Positions 1,995-28,435 of a DNA stretch of 64,000 nucleotides are shown here, piece by piece. The notes beneath the pieces are model-generated. The model searched no databases. It had not been told where the DNA came from and saw nothing but the letters and a program-made list of their open reading frames with translations. The position numbers and the translations under genes were made by a program. The first letter of the stretch is position 1, and every line of letters starts with the position of its first letter. Origin of the DNA: Patescibacteria group bacterium (GTDB lineage: Bacteria; Patescibacteriota; Minisyncoccia; Minisyncoccales; RBG-13-36-15); the NCBI GenBank assembly GCA_022574775.1, contig JACZRI010000001.1:95631-159630 (forward strand). The letters are read 5' to 3'.

Positions 1995-3524
1995 ATGAAC
2001 CAAATTATTTTACTTTCAATTGGAGTAATATTTTTAGCTGTGGGAGCTATCCTGGGATATTATGCCCGCCAATCTATTGCGAGAAGGCAAATCGGAACTC
2101 TGGAAGAAAAAATTCAAAAAAGAGTTTCCGAAGCTAAAAATGAGGCTCAGTTAATCATAGCTGAGGCCACGGAAAAAGCCTCTCAGGTTTTAGGAAAAGT
2201 AAAAAAAGATATAGACCAAAGACAAGCAAGTCTGCTGAGAACTGAACAGTTATTGCTTAAAAGAGAAAATATTTTAGACAATAAATTTTCTCTTTTTGAG
2301 AAAAAAGAAAAAGAATTTCAGGAGAAAGTTCAGGCGTTAAAGAAGATTAAAAAGGACATAGAAGGATTAAAGGAGAAAGTTACAGAAAACTTAGAGAAAG
2401 TTTCCAAGTTATCCAAAGAAGAAGCAAAAAAAGAGCTTTTTGAGAATTTAAAGAAAAACTATCAAGCGGAAATTTTAGAGAAAATAAGGAGATTAGAGAA
2501 AGAAGGAACAGAACAATTTGAAAAGAAGGCGAAAGGGCTGATAGCTACTGCTATGCAGAGAGTTGCAATCAGTCAAGCCCAAGAGCTTACCACAACTACC
2601 ATTTCTCTTCCATCAGACGATATAAAAGGAAGAATTATCGGAAAAGAAGGAAGGAATATCAGGACTTTAGAAAGATTGACTGGTGTGGAAATTATTGTTG
2701 ATGATACACCGGGGGCAGTGGTTATCTCAGGTTTTGATCCAATCCGCCGCCAGATTGCGAAAATTGCTTTGGAGAAATTGATCTCTGACGGCAGAATTCA
2801 ACCCGCCAGAATTGAAGACGAGGTTTCAAAGGCTGAAGTTGAAGTTGCGAATAAAATAAAGGAAGCCGGAGAAGAGGTCGTGTACGAGACAGGATTAGTC
2901 GGCCTTCATCCGAAATTAGTTCAACTTTTAGGAAGATTAAATTTCAGGACAAGCTATGGCCAAAATGTTCTTTTACACTCTCTTGAGGTTTCCTATTTGG
3001 CAGAGGCCTTGGCTTCAGAAATTGGCGGAGACGCGCAAGTTTCAAAAAAGGCAGGGTTATTCCACGACATTGGAAAAGCAGTTGATCATCAAATTCAGGG
3101 TTCCCATGTTGTTATTGGAATGAAAATTCTGGAGAAATTTGATGTGGAGAAAGAAATAATTGACGCTATGAAATCTCACCACGAAGAGTTTCCCTACGAT
3201 ACCTTAGAATCGGTAATTGTCCAGGTGGCTGACCAAATTTCAGGTGCTCGGCCCGGAGCTCGAAAAGATACAGTTGAAAATTACTTAAAGAGGTTGGCCG
3301 ATTTAGAGGATATTGCGATTTCTTTCCCCGGCATTGACAAAGCTTGGGCTCTGCAGGCAGGAAGAGAGTTGAGAGTTTTCGTGAAGCCTGAAGACGTTGA
3401 TGATTTGACCAGCAGGCAATTAGCAAACGACATCGCAAAAAAAATTGAAGAAGAATTAAGATATCCTGGAGAAATAAAGGTGACGGTAGTGAGAGAAAGC
3501 CGAGTAATTGAATATGCGAGATAA
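1995..3524 (+). CDS. rny: Ribonuclease Y
   Basis: N-terminal TM helix, coiled-coil region, KH motif GKEGRNIRTLE, HD motif LFHDIGK. 509 aa, typical RNase Y layout. Confidence 0.95.
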   Translation: MNQIILLSIGVIFLAVGAILGYYARQSIARRQIGTLEEKIQKRVSEAKNEAQLIIAEATEKASQVLGKVKKDIDQRQASLLRTEQLLLKRENILDNKFSLFEKKEKEFQEKVQALKKIKKDIEGLKEKVTENLEKVSKLSKEEAKKELFENLKKNYQAEILEKIRRLEKEGTEQFEKKAKGLIATAMQRVAISQAQELTTTTISLPSDDIKGRIIGKEGRNIRTLERLTGVEIIVDDTPGAVVISGFDPIRRQIAKIALEKLISDGRIQPARIEDEVSKAEVEVANKIKEAGEEVVYETGLVGLHPKLVQLLGRLNFRTSYGQNVLLHSLEVSYLAEALASEIGGDAQVSKKAGLFHDIGKAVDHQIQGSHVVIGMKILEKFDVEKEIIDAMKSHHEEFPYDTLESVIVQVADQISGARPGARKDTVENYLKRLADLEDIAISFPGIDKAWALQAGRELRVFVKPEDVDDLTSRQLANDIAKKIEEELRYPGEIKVTVVRESRVIEYAR

Positions 3525-3545
3525 AGGATTATAATTATTTAAACA

Positions 3546-3577
3546 AGAATACGCCGCGTTAGAAGCGGCGTATTCTT
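3546..3577 (+). terminator. Rho-independent terminator after rny
   Basis: aagaatacgccgc-gttagaa-gcggcgtattctt followed by ttg. Confidence 0.7.
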
Positions 3578-3584
3578 TTGTTGA

Positions 3585-3655
3585 AGCGGGTGATGGGAAT
3601 CGAACCCACATAGCTAGGTTGGAAACCTAGAACTCTACCATTGAGCTACACCCGC
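3585..3655 (-). tRNA. tRNA-Gly(TCC)
   Basis: Hand-folded cloverleaf: acceptor GCGGGTG/CACCCGC, anticodon stem CTAGG/CCTAG, loop TTTCCAA, T-loop TTCGATT. Confidence 0.9.
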
Positions 3656-3662
3656 AAATAAT

Positions 3663-3733
3663 TCGGGGTACTCGGATTCGAACCGAGACTAAATCCTCCC
3701 AAAGGACTCGTGCTACCGTTACACTATACCCCG
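3663..3733 (-). tRNA. tRNA-Pro(TGG)
   Basis: Acceptor CGGGGTA/TACCCCG (C1-G72), anticodon stem AGTCC/GGATT, loop TTTGGGA, T-loop TTCGAAT. Confidence 0.9.
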
Positions 3734-3896: not shown

Positions 3897-4844
3897 GTGA
3901 TCATCAGAAAATTCCTTAAGCATCTGAATATCCTTGCCCAATCTCGAGAATCCGGAGTTTCCATTTGGCAATATCCACAATTTCTCTTTTTAGTAATGGG
4001 AATAATGACTATTGTTTCAATTCTTACTGCTTACGTTATTGGTATTCGGTATGTGGCAGAACCTGAAGTGGTGGTTTTAATAGTGCTTATTCTATCAGCC
4101 ATTTTGTTGGTTATTACTTTCACTATTACCCAAAGTTTTGAAAGATTGATTGAAGCCAACCGGATGAAATCAGAATTTGTGAGTATTGTTTCCCATCAAT
4201 TACGCTCTCCCCTTTCCAATTTGAAATGGGCCCTTGAGTTATTAATGTCAGGAAGGCTTGGGAAGATTGAAGCTCAACAGCTTGAGTATTTCGGAATTTT
4301 GAAAGACAGCAGTGCTCGTATGAGAGAGTTGGTTAGAGATCTTTTGATTGTTTCCAGAATTGAGCAAGGCAAACTTCCATTACAAACAGTAGAAGTTTCT
4401 TTACCTCTTTTAGTAAAAGATCTGATTTTAGAATTTACTCCCTTGGCTGAGGCCTCAAATGTTGTAATAAAATTTGAACCAGATAACAGTCTCCCTAATG
4501 TGCTCGCCGATCCTTCTAAGGTAAAGTTAGTTGTTGAGAATTTTTTAGACAACGCAATCCGCTATATTAAAGGAAACGGGGAGGTTGGAATTAAGCTTAG
4601 CAGAGAAGATAATTTTCTTCACTTTCAGATTAGAGATAATGGAGTAGGCATTCCCAAGGAGGACCAGAAGTATATTTTCAAGAAGTTTTTTCGGTCATCA
4701 AACGTTTTGAAGCGTCAAACCCAGGGGACAGGACTTGGTCTGTATATTGCAAAATCTATTATCGAAAGGTCGAAAGGGAAAATCTGGTTCAAATCAGAGG
4801 AAGATAAGGGAACTACACTTCATTTTATTTTACCAATTAAATAG
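3897..4844 (+). CDS. Sensor histidine kinase (membrane-bound, HisKA + HATPase_c)
   Basis: Two N-terminal TM helices. H-box SHQLRSPLS, N-box DNAIRY, G-boxes DNGVGI and GTGLGL. GTG start. Confidence 0.85.
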   Translation: MIIRKFLKHLNILAQSRESGVSIWQYPQFLFLVMGIMTIVSILTAYVIGIRYVAEPEVVVLIVLILSAILLVITFTITQSFERLIEANRMKSEFVSIVSHQLRSPLSNLKWALELLMSGRLGKIEAQQLEYFGILKDSSARMRELVRDLLIVSRIEQGKLPLQTVEVSLPLLVKDLILEFTPLAEASNVVIKFEPDNSLPNVLADPSKVKLVVENFLDNAIRYIKGNGEVGIKLSREDNFLHFQIRDNGVGIPKEDQKYIFKKFFRSSNVLKRQTQGTGLGLYIAKSIIERSKGKIWFKSEEDKGTTLHFILPIK

Positions 4845-4940
4845 AAGCAGACTTAACTCTGATAAGTATACTGAACTACGCTGAAAAAATCGGTGGTTCA
4901 TCAGCGTTTTCAATCATTGTATTATCAGTTTCTGCAAAAT

Positions 4941-5309
4941 ATGGAAAAAATTTTATTCATTGAGGATGAATCAGCTCTCCAAAAAACTCTTGGAGAGATA
5001 TTGCGGCAAGAAGGTTATGAGATAATTTCTGCTCTAGATGGTGAAATTGGTTTAAAGTTGGCTAACGCGAAAAAGCCTGACTTGATTTTACTTGATCTTA
5101 TCTTGCCGAAAATTCACGGTTTTGAGGTTTTGAAAAAATTAAAAGAAAATGCTGAAACAAAAGCGATTCCAGTATTGGTTTTAACAAATCTGGAGGATGT
5201 AAAAGATATTGAAAAGGTCCTTGAATTAGGAGCAACCACCTATTTGGTTAAAGAAAATTATAGCTTAGAAGAAGTGCTTGAGAAAATAAAGAAAACCCTA
5301 AACCAATAA
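4941..5309 (+). CDS. Receiver-only response regulator (CheY-like)
   Basis: MEKILFIEDE.., phospho-acceptor context DLILLDLILP, VLVLTN, no output domain. Start moved to ATG 4941 inside track ORF 4893..5309. Confidence 0.85.
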   Translation: MEKILFIEDESALQKTLGEILRQEGYEIISALDGEIGLKLANAKKPDLILLDLILPKIHGFEVLKKLKENAETKAIPVLVLTNLEDVKDIEKVLELGATTYLVKENYSLEEVLEKIKKTLNQ

Positions 5310-9331: not shown

Positions 9332-9395
9332 AAAGTATGAAATACAAAGTACGAAGAAACGAAGAAAAAAAATTTTCAGAACTTCAGACTTCTTG
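9332..9395 (+). repeat. Family B hairpin repeat
   Basis: aaagtatgaaatacaaagtacgaagaaacgaagaaaaaaaattttcagaacttcagacttcttg. Contains the first ATG of the next ORF. Confidence 0.75.
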
Positions 9396-9900
9396 TTTTC
9401 GACTCGGCTCGCCAAGAGTGGCAGATTTCAGGATTCAGAAGGGGGTTTCGGTAATTGAAATTTTAGTAGTGATTTTTATTTTGGCTGTTGCTTTTGTTGG
9501 TATTTTAGGCTTAATCACTTTTTCTTTAAAAGTTTCCACTTTAACAAAAGAGACCACGCAAGCTGTGAATATAACCCAAGAAACATTTGAGGTTGTTCGT
9601 AATTTTCGAGACGGAAAGGATTGGAGTACAGACGGTCTCGGGAGTTTAGTCATGGAAGTTCCTTATCATCCAGAGAAGACAATTGATATTCCTCCTCAGT
9701 GGGCGCTCATTCAGGGAGAGGAGATAATTGATGGATTTTCAAGAAAGGTTGTTTTTAAGGAGGTTTTTCGGGATGGAAATGACGATATTGTTGAAACTGG
9801 TGGAGTATTAGATCCAGATACTAAAAAAGCCACAGTTACTGTTTCTTGGAAAGATCAAGAAGTTGAAGTAGCTACTTATTTTACTAACTGGAATCAATGA
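9337..9900 (+). CDS. Minor pilin, PilV/GspI-like, locus 1 (start uncertain)
   Basis: Prepilin-type segment QKG-VSVIEILVVIFILAVAFVGILG. ATG 9337 lies inside repeat B. In-frame GTG 9418 would give the leader MADFRIQKG. Confidence 0.65.
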   Translation: MKYKVRRNEEKKFSELQTSCFRLGSPRVADFRIQKGVSVIEILVVIFILAVAFVGILGLITFSLKVSTLTKETTQAVNITQETFEVVRNFRDGKDWSTDGLGSLVMEVPYHPEKTIDIPPQWALIQGEEIIDGFSRKVVFKEVFRDGNDDIVETGGVLDPDTKKATVTVSWKDQEVEVATYFTNWNQ

Positions 9901-23790: not shown

Positions 23791-24556
23791 AATTTAATTT
23801 TTTTAAAACTTTTTCTAAATCCTCGGATAATTTTGATTTAAACTCTTTTTCTACTCCATCTGGCGATATTATTTTTAGGCGGCTCGCATGCAAAAAATGC
23901 CTTCGGAGATTTTTGGGTTTTTGCTGTCCTTTGAAGCCGTATAATTTGTCACCGGCTATTGGATGGCCAAGGTAAGAAAAATGGCAGCGGATTTGGTGTT
24001 TTCTCCCGGTTTTCGGGATGGCCTCAATCAATGTATATTCTTTGAATTTTTCCAGCGTCCTATATTCTGTAATCGCTTTTCTTAGACCTTTCTTTTTAGC
24101 TTCAGGAGCATTGAAAGAGAAAGCTTTTTGTTTTTTTTGATTTTTCGGAGCTCTTCCGAGCAACGTCTCAATTTTTCCTTGGCTTGGCATTAGATACCCA
24201 GTAATTAACAATAGGTATACCTTCAAAACCTTTCTCTCTTTAAATTCTTTTTGCAAGAACTTCAAACTTTCACCATTTTTTGCTACCAAAAGAATTCCTG
24301 AAGTTTCTTTATCTAAGCGGTGAACTATTCCATATCTCGGTGATTCTCCAACAGTTTTTATATAAGGAAATTCTTTTAAAAGCAAGTCAATTACTGTTTT
24401 TTCTGTAATGAGTTTTTCCCGCCTTTGGCGTCGCCTCTGGTGAACCTTGCCTTGGGCGGGAGGCTCGCCTTCTGGGGCGGCCGGGAAAACGACAATCCCT
24501 GTTGGTTTGTCTATAACGAGAATATTTTTATCTTCGTATATTATCTTTATATCCAT
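23774..24556 (-). CDS. RluA-family pseudouridine synthase (no S4 domain)
   Basis: Catalytic motif [16 protein letters not shown], also HQIRCHF. 17-nt overlap with rplS. Confidence 0.85.
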
Positions 24557-24610
24557 GTGGTGTGAACCACATCGGGTTCACACCAATCCTGAACCCTTCG
24601 TGGTTTGGGG

Positions 24611-24684
24611 TGAGCGCGATCCGACTTGAACGGATGACCTCCTGCGTGTCGAGCAGACGCTCTAACCAACTGAGCTACGCGCCC
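24611..24684 (-). tRNA. tRNA-Val(GAC), anticodon loop with C at position 33
   Basis: Acceptor GGGCGCG/CGCGCTC, anticodon stem TCTGC/GCAGG, loop TCGACAC, T-loop TTCAAGT. Confidence 0.8.
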
Positions 24685-24690
24685 ATATAG

Positions 24691-24740
24691 TGCGTACGGA
24701 TGGATATTCGAACAATTGAACCTGTGATTATATCGATAAC
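24691..24740 (-). pseudogene. tRNA 3'-half-like fragment (degenerate T arm)
   Basis: Minus strand ends ..ATCCATC-CGTACGC-A. The T-stem 3' strand is identical to tRNA-Ile(TAT). The acceptor strand pairs 6/7 with the 5' half at 24923-24958. A 10-nt insertion disrupts the T loop. Confidence 0.45.
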
Positions 24741-24815
24741 TTTCATTTAAGATTTTTATACGCAGTCACCGATATATCAATGGCTACATTATATTTATTA
24801 ACTTCATCTCTCACG

Positions 24816-24888
24816 TGGGCGCGGATGGATTTGAACCATCGACCCCCACTTTATAAGAGTGGTGCTCTAACCGCTGAGCTACGCGCCC
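24816..24888 (-). tRNA. tRNA-Ile(TAT)
   Basis: Acceptor GGGCGCG/CGCGCCC, anticodon stem CCACT/AGTGG, loop CTTATAA, T-loop TTCAAAT. Flanked by a 12-bp leader/trailer complement. Confidence 0.85.
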
Positions 24889-24922
24889 ACGTGAGAGATG
24901 TTTACCAAATGAAAGCCATTGA

Positions 24923-24958
24923 TATAAGCCGGATGCTCTACCGCTGAGCTACGTGCGC
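24923..24958 (-). pseudogene. tRNA 5'-half-like fragment ending in an anticodon-loop-like CTTATA
   Basis: Minus strand GCGCACG-TA-GCTC-AGCGGTA-GAGC-A-TCCGG-CTTATA. The D arm is near-identical to the intact tRNA-Ile(TAT). No adjacent 3' half. Confidence 0.5.
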
Positions 24959-24983
24959 AAAATTTTAGAGGACAACTCGCAAT

Positions 24984-26870
24984 CTATCTCACTTTTTTTA
25001 TTTTTAAATGAGGAAAGGCGGCTTTTCTCTTTTTTCTTGTCTTTTTATTCTCCCCTTTTATCAATTCTTCAAACTCCTCTCTCTCAATTGTTTCTTTTTC
25101 AATTAGAGTTTTGGCAATTTTATCTAAAAGTGTTCTTTTTTTTACCAATATTTTTTTAGCAGTTTTCTGGGCCTCGCCAATAAATTTAGAAACTTCTTTA
25201 TCTATCTTAGCTGCTATTTCTTCAGAGTAATTTCTTTGTTCTGAAATTTCTTTTCCTAAAAATATAAATTCCTCCTTTTCTCCAAAAGAAACTGGCCCCA
25301 AAGAGGACATTCCGTATTCTTTCACTAATTTCCTGGCAAAAAAAGAGGCCTTTTGCAGATCATTTGAAGCTCCGGTGGTAATTTCGTCAAATTTCAGTTT
25401 TTCAGCACAATACCCGCCTAAAAGTGTTGCCATTTCAGCCAAGAATTCAGATTTTCTTCTAATCCTTCTCTCTTCCGTGGGCACTTTTAAAGTGTAGCCC
25501 GCGACTGATCCACGAGCAATAATTGAAATTTTTCTAATGGGTTCTGTACCTGGAATTGAGACAGAAACCAGCGCGTGTCCTGCTTCATGAAAGGCAGCAA
25601 TTTCTTTTTCTTTTTTTGATAGAACGTGACTTTTTCTTTCTGGCCCTAATAGGACTTTTTCAATTGATTCTAACAGTTCTTCTTGGAAAACCTGTGTCTT
25701 ATTCATTTTTGCAGCCAAGATTGCAGCTTCATTCATTAAATTAGCCAAATCAGCTCCCGAGAATCCTGGAGTGCGTTCTGCGATTTCTCTTAAATTTGTA
25801 TTTGATGCCATAGGTTTTCCCCTGCAATGAATTTCCAAAATTTCTTTTCTATCACTGATGTCCGGCAAATCAAGAATTATTCTTCTGTCAAATCTTCCCG
25901 GTCGCAAAAGAGCTGGATCAAGGACATCCGGCCGGTTGGTTGCCGCGAATACTAAAGTTCCAGATTCTCTTTCAAAGCCATCCATCTCAACTAAAATTTG
26001 GTTCAATGTCTGTTCTCTTTCATCATGACCGCCTCCTATGCCCGCTCCACGAACACGACCAATAGCGTCTAATTCATCAATAAAGACTATGGATTTCCCG
26101 GCCTTTTTGGCAGTGGCGAACAAATCCCGGACTCTGCTGCTTCCTACCCCTACAAACAACTCTATGAATTCAGAACCAGAAGCTGAGAAAAAAGGAACCC
26201 CGGCTTCAGTCGCGACAGCTCTTGCCAAAAGAGTTTTTCCTGTCCCGGGTGGTCCCGTTAACAAAACTCCTCTTGGTATCTTTGCCCCTATTGCTAAATA
26301 TTTCTTCGGGTTTTTTAGAAAATCAATAATCTCTTTCAGTTCTTCTTTCGCTTCTTTTAAACCAGCTACATCCCGGAACGTGACTTTTTCTTTCGGATGG
26401 CCTTCAGCGCCAAACAATTTCGCCTTTGCCTTGGTGAAATCAAAAGCCTGCATAGCTCCTGTTTTTGCCTGGCGGAAAATCATCCAGAAAAGTAAAAGAG
26501 GAAACAGGAAGAGTAAAATTAAGAAAATCGGGCCAGACCAAACCAAGAACCCTCCTTCTTTTTTATATTCAATCTCAACTTTTCCCGGACGCATTTTTTC
26601 TGGTTCAACGCCAAGATTAAACAATACCTGAGTGAAATCTGCATCAGCCTCTTTCTGCGACTTAGCTTTTGATTCATCTTTATAAAAAATGGAAATACTG
26701 GTTCCTGCAACAGTAATTTTTTCTACCTTTTCTTTGTTAAGATCTTCTACCAATTGGCTGAGGGGGATTGTTTCAATTTTTTCAAAAGGCTGAAAAACCA
26801 AAGCAAAAAGGCTTGAGATAACAAGTAAGAATAAAATAACCAATAAGAAATTTTGGACTAATTTTTTCAT
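24984..26870 (-). CDS. ftsH: ATP-dependent zinc metalloprotease FtsH
   Basis: TM helices, Walker [17 protein letters not shown] region, zinc site HEAGHAL. 628 aa. Confidence 0.95.
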
Positions 26871-27070: not shown

Positions 27071-28435
27071 TTAGGTCTGGTCGTTGATCTGGGCAAGTTT
27101 TGTAGCCTGCCCGTATGCGTTCCGGAGAATCGTGCCTAGGGGATGAGGGACCCCAAAGAACTTATCTCCTTCTGGGTGTTCACCCATGCACGGCTTGAGG
27201 AGTTCCTCAAAATGCGGAGGAACCTCCACGAGCAGGATGAAAGGCTGGTCTTTTTCGTCCTGGGTGAATCGTTCAACCAGAAAGAATGGGTCAAGGACCC
27301 TGTTTACTACCTGCCCGTCTGGTGCTCTTTCTTCCCAGTCCTGTTCGAGTTGCACAAGACAGGTGCCTTTTTGCTCCTTGAGCAGGAATTGCTCAGAAGA
27401 GATTGTTGCCTTTTTGGCAAGCTCTTCCTTGAGTGCCTGGCGTTGCTGTTTTTCTTCCAGTGCCCGAAGGCCTCGTTGGATAAGGTGCCAGATGAGCTGG
27501 ATTTTCCGGTTCATCTCCGATGGAAGCGTCCTAACGAATGGGGGAGTTTCCCACTGCAGGCTTTCTGCCTTAAGGTGGACACCCAAATCCTTGGCTTCTG
27601 TGATGGCTTTCTGAATGCTGCCTGTGGCAGCTAAAGGCATTACCTTTTCGCCGTCAGATTCCATCAGCAAGGTTCCACCACCACGCCAGAAGTCAGTGGC
27701 TCCACCAGCTAACTTCACTTCTTCTGGCGGAATTCCCAAGGCGAACTTGCCTGGCTTTCCTGCGCGGAATTCCTTTGCTGTGAGCTCGCTCTGAGTGAAG
27801 AAATCTTGTGCTGTCTCGGTACGGACCTTTTTTTCCGTTTCCCAGACTCGGCTGAGGAATTTGGCGACGATCTCTTCGAGCTCGTTCGTTTCCGGTTCCC
27901 CAAAGGCAGATTCAGCAGGGACAACATAGTCTTTGCCATATGCCTTCAAGGCTGTTGCAGGAAGCTCCTGCGGGGTTTCCTGTTCATCCCCGTTTCTGTT
28001 GGGAACAGGAATTTCCTGGAGATAGCCCTGCTCCACGAGTTCTTGGAGAAGAGCTATTGCTTCTGTCCGCGAACCAAGCTCTGCAGAGAACCGATGGCTT
28101 AAAACGCCCAGCCAGCTTGCCCGACGGTATGCCGGCGTTTCACTTTGTATGTACTCGCGAAGCGTCTTTTCTACCTCTTTTATCGCTTCGACCGCCAGTT
28201 CTTGCGCTTCCCGAGAACCACTTTTCGTTTCATCGATTTTGGGCAACACAGTAGTCACCCATTCTCTGATCTGTTCAGCTCCTTCCCTGATGCGTTCAGC
28301 CACAGCCTCATCTGCGGTTAGCGCATCGGAGATTTCCGGAAGTTCTGGCAGAGATATGAAACTCGCCCTTACTTCTTTCAGTTCTCCAAAAGAGTGTAGA
28401 GTTTTTTCCCCACTCACTGTTTTTGCCTCCTTCAT
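27071..28435 (-). CDS. Hypothetical acidic 454-aa protein, compositionally atypical (about 50% G+C)
   Basis: Long ORF. Hand counts of two 60-nt samples gave 32/60 and 30/60 G+C, versus 17/60 in an ftsH sample. Six overlapping spurious track ORFs. No domain recognised. AAGGAGG directly after ATG 28435 plus in-frame GTG 28417 suggests an alternative start. Confidence 0.7.
   Translation of the reverse strand: MKEAKTVSGEKTLHSFGELKEVRASFISLPELPEISDALTADEAVAERIREGAEQIREWVTTVLPKIDETKSGSREAQELAVEAIKEVEKTLREYIQSETPAYRRASWLGVLSHRFSAELGSRTEAIALLQELVEQGYLQEIPVPNRNGDEQETPQELPATALKAYGKDYVVPAESAFGEPETNELEEIVAKFLSRVWETEKKVRTETAQDFFTQSELTAKEFRAGKPGKFALGIPPEEVKLAGGATDFWRGGGTLLMESDGEKVMPLAATGSIQKAITEAKDLGVHLKAESLQWETPPFVRTLPSEMNRKIQLIWHLIQRGLRALEEKQQRQALKEELAKKATISSEQFLLKEQKGTCLVQLEQDWEERAPDGQVVNRVLDPFFLVERFTQDEKDQPFILLVEVPPHFEELLKPCMGEHPEGDKFFGVPHPLGTILRNAYGQATKLAQINDQT

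Follow-up and report, generated by a model that had tools for sequence, protein, structure and literature searches.

Here, we describe a tRNA gene lying inside another tRNA gene in the genome of a Patescibacteria group bacterium (GenBank assembly GCA_022574775.1, contig JACZRI010000001.1). The stretch analysed, hereafter the window, comprises 64,000 nucleotides, and all coordinates of the locus are window positions on the minus strand. Downstream of the ftsH stop codon, the 5′ half of a tRNA is followed by 35 nt, a complete tRNA-Ile(UAU), a further 86 nt (24815-24730), a degenerate tRNA 3′ half, 5 nt and tRNA-Val(GAC) (Table 1). The insert (24923-24730, 194 nt) breaks the outer tRNA-Ile(UAU) in its anticodon loop after T36, and its sole open reading frame (ORF) is a 55-aa frame antisense to the tRNA. 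The inner gene is a perfect cloverleaf, called by ARAGORN as tRNA-Ile(tat) at 24815-24888 and matched at 24816-24888 by the Rfam tRNA model RF00005 with 75.7 bits (E = 8e-15), the top score among the window's 20 tRNAs. The outer 5′ half, GCGCACG-TA-GCTC-AGCGGTA-GAGC-A-TCCGG-CTTAT, shares 29 of 36 positions with the inner 5′ half, and the outer 3′ piece matches the inner 3′ half at 26 of 37.

An earlier examination of the letters by themselves (the sequence-only reading) had proposed that one tRNA-Ile(UAU) is interrupted in its anticodon loop by a paralog, itself complete and equipped with an extended stem; ARAGORN, Rfam and the sequence itself bear this out. The 13-bp inverted repeat that it listed (P1) is exact, as is the 6/7 pairing of the acceptor strand in the 3′ piece. 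Its 12-bp repeat (P2) is likewise exact but only part of a longer, 19-bp perfect inverted repeat (24882-24900 / 24805-24823) that prolongs the inner acceptor stem. The break, placed by that reading after position 37 and at the canonical intron position, in fact follows T36: TAT is present at 24926-24924 and again at the end of the insert, and the insert falls at 36/37, with AT duplicated, instead of at the 37/38 of archaeal and eukaryal introns. A further helix of 21 nt, with 86% pairing, joins the left junction to the far right end of the insert, and a 13-nt hairpin (P3) stands immediately 5′ of the outer 3′ half. The 277-nt region as a whole folds at -100.2 kcal/mol compared to -65.5 ± 4.4 kcal/mol for shuffled sequences (z = -7.9). 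Scanning for promoters and terminators returned nothing exceeding shuffles. Rfam searches, at gathering as well as permissive thresholds, found the two tRNAs only and no ribozyme or intron family.

Table 1 Features of the split tRNA-Ile locus and its conserved neighbours
Feature	Window position	Strand	Composition	Basis
Outer tRNA-Ile(UAU) 5′ half (resident, disrupted)	24924-24958	-	Acceptor 5′ strand, intact D arm, anticodon-stem TCCGG, loop CTTAT to T36	Sequence; direct repeats D1 and D3 with inner gene; ancestral place after ftsH
Left arm (L), 35 nt	24889-24923	-	P1 5′ strand (24914-24926, taking in anticodon bases) and acceptor-extension P2 5′ strand (24889-24900)	I1 and I4 100% complementary; minimum-free-energy (MFE) fold
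Inner intact tRNA-Ile(UAU), taken as the functional gene	24816-24888	-		ARAGORN; Rfam RF00005; cloverleaf
Right arm (R)	24773-24816	-	P2 3′ strand 24805-24816 including discriminator A73, 19-nt spacer, P1 3′ strand AGCCATTGATATA 24773-24785	I1 (19 bp) and I4 (13 bp) perfect; homologous to R of L003
Hairpin P3	24729-24776	-	TATATCGGTGACT, 22-nt loop, AGTTATCGATATA; two G.U pairs; overlaps palindrome GATATATC (24771-24778); insert end TAT 24732-24730	I8
Alternative partner of the left junction	24728-24748	-	Pairs with 24907-24927; spans both junctions with a 2-nt stagger	I2 (21 nt, 86%); helix present in MFE structure
Outer tRNA-Ile 3′ half, decayed	24691-24729	-	TCACA no longer pairs TCCGG; T stem 3/5, T loop 9 nt, acceptor 6/7	Alignment to intact 3′ half of L003
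tRNA-Val(GAC), conserved downstream neighbour marking the ancestral tRNA-Ile slot	24611-24684	-		ARAGORN; Rfam; synteny in ~45 relatives
ftsH, conserved upstream neighbour	24984-26870	-	Peptidase_M41 and AAA domains	Pfam; query used to retrieve 80 related loci

The two genes differ sharply in condition. When the insert is excised in silico, the joined outer halves make a poor cloverleaf (acceptor stem 6/7, anticodon stem 3/5, T stem 3/5, T loop of 9 nt) that ARAGORN calls at a relaxed threshold only and not at default. Within its T arm, GGTTCAATTG aligns to GGGTCGATGG of the orthologous, intact 3′ half in a related genome, L003; this alignment favours substitution decay plus a 2-nt insertion over the 10-nt insertion suggested by the sequence-only reading. 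The outer gene is a decayed relic and not a spliceable pair of exons, a judgement we make because it occupies the ancestral slot, as set out below, and has decayed. The helices P1 and P2 of the window are perfect although the outer tRNA has decayed.

To place the locus, we compared it with its relatives. The neighbouring genes in the window are bacterial (FtsH, an RluA-type pseudouridine synthase, L19, IF-2 and S1), and the nearest FtsH relatives belong to Patescibacteria of the Parcubacteria/Paceibacteria group, under the labels Nealsonbacteria, Staskawiczbacteria and Minisyncoccales. The gene order ftsH, tRNA-Ile(tat), tRNA-Val(gac), rluA, L19 recurs at about 60 of the 80 related loci. Between tRNA-Ile and tRNA-Val, relatives usually have a gap of 1-7 nt; in the window, it is the outer 3′ end that lies 5 nt from tRNA-Val. 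From this conserved order we conclude that the outer halves hold the ancestral tRNA-Ile slot and that the inner gene with its flanks is the addition. In L003, whose FtsH is 79% identical to that of the window, the right arm, hairpin and 3′ half align full-length with their window counterparts, which makes the insertion older than the split between the two; the L003 3′ half is still a good half-tRNA, and that of the window carries the changes given above. A further sample, independent of this one, yielded an identical contig (L001). In L002, which comes from another, independent public assembly of this organism, the contig starts inside the inner tRNA-Ile, at window position 24876, and this contig break shows that the duplicated half-tRNA sequences disturb short-read assembly here.

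A UAU anticodon is unusual for tRNA-Ile among bacteria generally, as the sequence-only reading had remarked, but it is the norm in this clade, where tRNA-Ile(tat) stands at about 60 of the 80 ftsH-neighbour loci. Directly 5′ of ftsH, the window holds a 454-aa ORF (27071-28435, minus strand) with no Pfam match and in which no TilS domain was seen. In many bacteria tilS adjoins ftsH, and an ORF in this place without a TilS domain would fit reliance on a UAU tRNA-Ile.

The window is one member of a recurrent family. We found the nested layout in five to six of about 62 related genomes, a set free of selection bias, with the same orientation in every case. Two of these are single nests (L046, L074), a third has outer halves identical to its inner gene (L048), and a fourth is a double nest in which each left arm pairs with its own right arm (L077); L003 is half-collapsed, retaining only the right arm, hairpin and 3′ half. 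At a further locus with an analogous nest (L067, 4984-5175), the inner gene is tRNA-Val(UAC), the outer tRNA has diverged and the arm helix measures 12 bp. To widen the sample, we searched metagenomes for a tRNA-Ile 5′ half ending in YTTAT, with another tRNA-Ile 5′ part starting 6-36 nt downstream of it. This pattern matched 116 metagenome stretches, 99 of them non-redundant, and had no match in viral contigs. Such recurrence excludes chance similarity of the fragments, a doubt raised with the sequence-only reading, and the comparison of the locus in relatives, which it had called for, returned both further nests and, in L003, an intact ortholog of the decayed 3′ half. Its view of the locus as an old duplication or insertion scar stands for the insertion scar, given the ancestral slot and the degenerate outer gene, but not for a single old accident.

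Across the family, the shared architecture is a 5′ half, a left arm, a complete tRNA, a complementary right arm, a small hairpin and a 3′ half. A recognisable 3′ half is present in 65 of 95 nests, while in the other 30 nothing resembling the inner one lies within 420 nt. Of those 65, 52 yield a callable tRNA-Ile, 73-100% identical to the inner gene, when the insert is excised in silico, and 13 are not restorable. The last three bases of the insert are TAT or CAT in 49 of 61 cases, and in relatives it usually begins with G. The junctions read CTT(AT) / insert...(AT) / AAAG, a 2-nt duplication centred on the palindromic loop TTATAA (positions 33-38). The small hairpin between the right arm and the 3′ half is present nearly always, and in one subfamily the palindromic GATATATC lies between R and P3. 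We also asked whether P3 copies the base of the left arm; the two agree at seven of ten positions in the window, and the likeness holds in some relatives too. With 4.23 matches of 8 in the family against 4.0 (p = 0.12), the idea was dropped as a general claim. A tRNA-Val(GAC) follows 34 of the 99 nests, and seven of the 99 have two 5′ halves. The nests appear to turn over, in that contigs whose flanks agree at 99% vary in how many left levels they carry and in the presence of the right side. A search for tRNA-Ile genes interrupted by the hairpin alone, with no replacement tRNA, found none.

Among about 480 other tRNA genes at the same loci, the same test gave one nest, in the tRNA(CAU) of L104. 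Nesting is tied strongly, though not exclusively, to tRNA-Ile(UAU). A tRNA(CAU) with an orphan 5′ half 19-22 nt upstream is present both in L104 (~4712-4840, minus strand) and in L115 (~9333-9560, minus strand), and a nest is likely in the latter as well. A full-text literature search, with incomplete coverage of subscription papers, turned up no account of tRNA genes nested in this way in bacteria, and an earlier one is possible.

In the 99 non-redundant nests, the left arm pairs lengthwise with the sequence immediately 3′ of the inner tRNA, and cognate L:R duplexes have a mean of -15.3 kcal/mol compared to -8.4 kcal/mol for arms swapped between loci (p = 3e-13). Arm sequences are hypervariable between loci with their complementarity kept. 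Throughout the family, arm mismatches on the tRNA strand are G.U (32) more often than A.C (14), and two-strand cofolding favours the sense over the antisense strand in 36 of 53 cases (p = 0.004). P3 shows covariation between L003 and the window, with U:A changing to C:G and G.U to G:C. The strand bias, taken with the perfect helices and decayed outer gene of the window, suggests selection at the RNA level on the helices, and none on the outer tRNA.

A second family-wide pattern concerns the similarity of inner and outer genes. Their anticodon stems are 90% identical within a locus and 44-46% between loci; for acceptor stems, the corresponding values are 71% and 58-65%. Position by position, identity declines with distance from the junction. 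A gradient running from anticodon to acceptor is not expected from plain insertion of a foreign cassette. Judged from sequence comparison, it appears co-conversion-like, matching the short tracts that would arise around a break if a filled allele repaired a cut, empty one. Target choice reaches well beyond the hexamer: the window has 31 TTATAA sites, of which one, in the tRNA, is occupied and 30 are empty, and the arms have no second copy in the 64-kb window. As for genes that might make such a break, small GIY-YIG ORFs of relatives lie, in about 10 of 14 cases, immediately 5′ of a tRNA gene on the same strand, and a family of ~225-aa helix-turn-helix (HTH) proteins, here HTH-225, abuts same-strand tRNA genes in 14 of 19. 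One GIY-YIG ORF is located inside a tRNA-Ile nest (L104), and two loci show an orphan 5′ half, then an ORF, then a complete tRNA (L096, L122).

Taken together, the inner gene is intact and the outer halves are decaying, the family occurs at tRNA-Ile(UAU) genes across this clade of ultra-small Patescibacteria, nests can be two deep, and one flank can go. We consider it probable that the insert is a selfish, ORF-less replacement cassette, which splits the resident tRNA-Ile, supplies its own copy, uses its arms as a processing stalk and spreads by gene conversion. In this proposal, the resident single-copy tRNA-Ile(UAU) would have been cut in the palindromic TTATAA, and a cassette with a complete replacement tRNA inserted, duplicating AT. 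The whole unit would be transcribed together, whereupon left and right arms would pair as a 19-bp continuation of the acceptor stem and a 13-bp distal helix, and so guard the inner tRNA against mispairing with the duplicated halves. On the model of rRNA processing stems, the long double-stranded stalk may invite endonucleolytic release by an RNase III-like enzyme, to be followed by RNase P and 3′ trimming, and the released inner tRNA would read AUA. As the apparently sole working copy of the gene would then lie inside the cassette, the host could not simply delete it. The least certain step is spread: a double-strand break in the anticodon loop of an uninterrupted tRNA-Ile may be repaired from a filled allele, as in homing, with break-adjacent sequence co-converted. 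The nuclease would act in trans; candidates are the small GIY-YIG enzymes, whose cuts leave 2-nt 3′ ends. Nests would then grow or collapse as the repeated halves recombine unequally.

Several observations weigh against this proposal. The inner tRNA keeps an intact target, and a homing nuclease should cut the donor too, which is awkward for stable drive; the retained target may, on the other hand, account for the double nests. The founding event, in which a whole tRNA with palindromic arms entered the loop, is left unexplained. In the window itself, the inner and outer anticodon stems differ (CCACT vs TCCGG), and the signature of co-conversion is not visible there. Moreover, the 64-kb window holds no GIY-YIG or HTH-225 homologue, no enzyme is tied to the TTATAA site, and the nuclease link is one that we infer. 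RNase III processing is argued from the likeness to rRNA processing stems. The G.U excess could come from strand-biased mutation instead of selection, and some of the nest polymorphism could be assembly collapse of short repeats in metagenomes. Finally, the metagenome set was picked by a pattern that required nests of the same orientation.

Some features of the locus would suit a miniature transposable DNA element, or a small circle inserted by a serine recombinase, with terminal inverted repeats and a 2-bp AT duplication at TTATAA that would stem from cut-and-paste movement or site-specific integration and not from homing. The terminal inverted repeats and target-site duplication expected of a miniature inverted-repeat transposable element (MITE) or insertion sequence (IS) are there: the inverted sequences I2 (21 nt, 86%) and I4 (13 nt, 100%), AT or TAT repeated at both junctions, a palindromic target and, in one subfamily, the palindromic internal site already noted. 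A 2-bp stagger is typical of serine recombinases and some transposases. We nevertheless regard such an element as unlikely. The arms are hypervariable between loci and offer no conserved end for a transposase to bind, only one of the 31 TTATAA sites is filled, and the window has a single copy; a typical MITE was rejected on these same grounds. Besides the missing GIY-YIG and HTH-225 homologues, no recombinase or transposase domain was detected in a scan limited to eight neighbouring ORFs. A simple insertion would leave the target's anticodon stem unrelated to that of the cargo tRNA, whereas 90% identity is observed, and every unbiased case has a single orientation. That the locus is only a local accident, be it a one-off duplication, a scar of replication slippage or an assembly artefact, without function or mobility, would agree with the outer copy being a pseudogene and with short repeats misleading assemblers, as the contig break of L002 in the inner tRNA illustrates. 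We give this almost no credence in view of the identical contig from an independent sample, the same architecture with diverged sequences in 116 metagenome stretches and several genome bins, the orthologous insertion in L003 and helices that stay perfect while the outer tRNA has decayed.

The insert could also be a protein-dependent bacterial tRNA intron: an endonuclease specific for double strands, for example, would cut the junction helix with a 2-nt 3′ stagger, and ligation of the exons would yield both outer and inner tRNA-Ile from one transcript. A single helix (in the window, the 21-nt I2) does span both junctions with the 2-nt 3′ offset of an RNase III-type cut, the helices are biased to the sense strand, the anticodon-loop position is like that of known tRNA introns, and excision restores a callable tRNA-Ile in the 52 of 65 relatives. 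We nonetheless hold this reading to be quite unlikely, as the window's outer exons form no tRNA, about 45% of nests have no restorable outer gene, and the junction-bridging helix, read manually, is just 4-6 bp in many family members. A spliceable intron would also permit interruption by the hairpin alone, of which we found no case. To our knowledge, no bacterial enzyme system for such tRNA splicing has been described. An RNA intron is conceivable, if at long odds, for members with intact outer halves, and not for the decayed copy in the window.

The replacement cassette that we favour may be set beside known systems. SegB, a free-standing GIY-YIG endonuclease of phage T4/T6 tRNA clusters, generates 2-nt 3′ ends by cutting inside tRNA gene sequence and mediates homing of the tRNA region in phage T4 (PMC2330249), and it drives accordion-like segmental amplification (PMC13096335). 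As proposed for the cassette, it breaks tRNA gene DNA and replaces tRNA genes through recombinational repair (PMC2330249; PMC13096335). The 2-nt 3′ ends, the accordion-like expansion and collapse, and the GIY-YIG ORFs that abut tRNA genes in relatives, one of them in a nest, extend the likeness. In contrast, SegB recognises the T-psi-C stem-loop and the cassette site is the anticodon loop; SegB gives tandem amplification or region replacement, and here a gene is nested in a gene; the cassette is without an ORF, the window without such a nuclease, and the host is a cellular Patescibacterium, not a phage. An endonuclease gene in or beside the segment, the mark of a homing cassette, is present in L104, L096 and L122 and not in the window; likewise, the co-conversion gradient appears at the level of the family.

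Integrase-encoding elements integrate in tRNA genes and restore them with their own 3′ part (attL/attR). An archaeal example has been reported (PMC3293823). The anticodon-loop target, an invader that brings compensating tRNA sequence and the orphan fragments that remain are common to both, but integrase elements span kilobases, encode their integrase and duplicate the 3′ part alone, whereas the cassette has 194 nt, no ORF, a whole tRNA and both target halves left in place. An integrase island was rejected for the small size of the insert, its want of an integrase and the complete tRNA flanked by both target halves; the layout of L003 is superficially alike. Archaeal tRNA introns, split tRNAs and transposing tRNA introns depend on the bulge-helix-bulge (BHB) motif and EndA (PMC4090602; summarised in PMC10714607). 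They share with our locus a break beside the anticodon, complementary flanks and mobility of intron-like sequences, and they differ from it in host (here bacterial), junction (36/37 with an AT duplication), exons (decaying) and content (a full tRNA in the insert). The sequence-only reading had left room for an unusual intron or a permuted gene, and neither is supported by the data. For a BHB intron, the junction follows T36 and not 37/38, helix P1 begins right at the junction, neither the fold nor reading by eye (no dedicated BHB search program being used) showed two 3-nt bulges 4 bp apart, and the window's exons give no ARAGORN gene at default, with two of five anticodon-stem and two of five T-stem pairs broken; in-silico excision does leave exons that form a callable tRNA in the 52 of 65 relatives. 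A split or permuted tRNA is contradicted by the 5′-3′ order of the halves, by the degenerate state of the outer gene and by the intact copy within the 194 nt that separate its halves. Output of ARAGORN in intron mode consisted mostly of chimeras of neighbouring tRNAs and was not used as evidence.

Group I introns occur in the anticodon loops of bacterial tRNAs (tRNA-Leu UAA, tRNA-Ile CAU and others). Like the cassette, they insert in that loop directly 3′ of a U and are frequently mobile via a homing endonuclease; rescue here, however, would be by a replacement gene and not by splicing. No group I core was found by Rfam, either with cmscan over 24550-25050 at E up to 10 or in the whole window at the gathering threshold, and the insert ends in T, not G, although the 5′ exon ends in U. 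The RNase III processing stalks of rRNA operons resemble the arms in having a long flanking helix of variable sequence and conserved pairing; we know of no such stalk for a single bacterial tRNA. IS200/IS605-type, Helitron-like and integron-attC-like elements were set aside, as the left end has no local hairpin, the arms are unconserved and a gene for a matching enzyme was not seen. Selfish elements that enter a tRNA gene and make good the damage are of a known kind, and what is unusual here is the ORF-less, palindromic, self-nesting architecture carrying a whole tRNA, which is apparently undescribed.

If this interpretation is correct, it would describe a compact route for a selfish element into an essential single-copy gene, namely to break the gene and bring a spare, and a hairpin-shaped cassette of 130-200 nt would become indispensable without the help of an integrase, an intein or an intron ribozyme. 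The association of tRNA genes with homing endonucleases would then reach from T-even phages to cellular Patescibacteria, and the nests would be a natural case of nested, self-similar RNA genes. If, instead, the intron reading were true, each level of a nest would yield a mature tRNA-Ile, making nests gene amplifiers under one promoter, and Bacteria would have their first protein-dependent tRNA intron system, the intron itself being a tRNA; the family makes that idea testable by metatranscriptome data. More than 100 variable, structurally conserved flanking helices would be a resource on tRNA processing in mostly unculturable organisms. For annotation, there is a warning in that tRNA finders in intron mode fuse unrelated halves and assemblers break at such loci.

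Some further observations concern the candidate nucleases. HTH-225 proteins (~225-235 aa) combine an N-terminal transposase-type HTH with an uncharacterised alpha/beta C-terminal domain, and copies are present in L006, L009, L037, L038, L041, L045, L050, L057, L065, L068, L096, L153 and others (e.g. L096, minus strand, 3024-3704). In the 14 of 19 cases with an adjoining tRNA gene (Val-GAC, Ile-UAU, Gly-GCC or Met-CAU), the ORF end lies -22 to +49 nt from the tRNA 5′ end, and the copy in L096 comes after an orphan tRNA-Val 5′ half stopping right past the anticodon. The AlphaFold model is confident and has no match in PDB or BFVD. HTH-225 may be a new tRNA-gene-associated homing nuclease. The GIY-YIG ORFs (~80-130 aa) were found in L028, L029, L063, L091, L096, L104, L115, L122, L139 and L156, with tRNAs for Gly, Ile, Val, Ser, Met, Trp, Cys and Ala; in L122, the GIY-YIG ORF stands between a tRNA-Cys 5′ half (33 nt identical) upstream and a full tRNA-Cys downstream.

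Other structured sequences accompany tRNA genes in the window and its relatives. In the window, two overlapping inverted repeats (16 nt, 81%; 11 nt, 100%) form a hairpin at 24558-24605, between tRNA-Val(GAC) and the rluA-type gene and without a T run. Downstream of tRNA-Val, some relatives carry a conserved, structured element of ~130-190 nt (L014 3941-4216, in two tandem copies; L028 2366-2545; L039 5048-5190; L040 7231-7395) of the form GCGAGAACC...CCGAAyyGCG...GGCAATG(T)CCTTCGGGCAA, with no Rfam hit. It terminates in a copy of the tRNA 3′ end from the T loop (TTCGAGTCC...CCCA), with which its 5′ segment covaries, and this T-loop breakpoint recalls, by analogy, SegB-type recognition sites. 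Relic tRNA fragments with GC-rich palindromic hairpins in their D and T loops (CCCCGCC...GGCGGGG, GGGACAAGTCCC) occur at 9915-10445 in L104 and at 4850-4945 and 5297-5390 in L029, and in L029 a tRNA 5′ fragment with a D-loop insertion stands on either side of a unit made up of a GIY-YIG ORF and tRNA-Ile.

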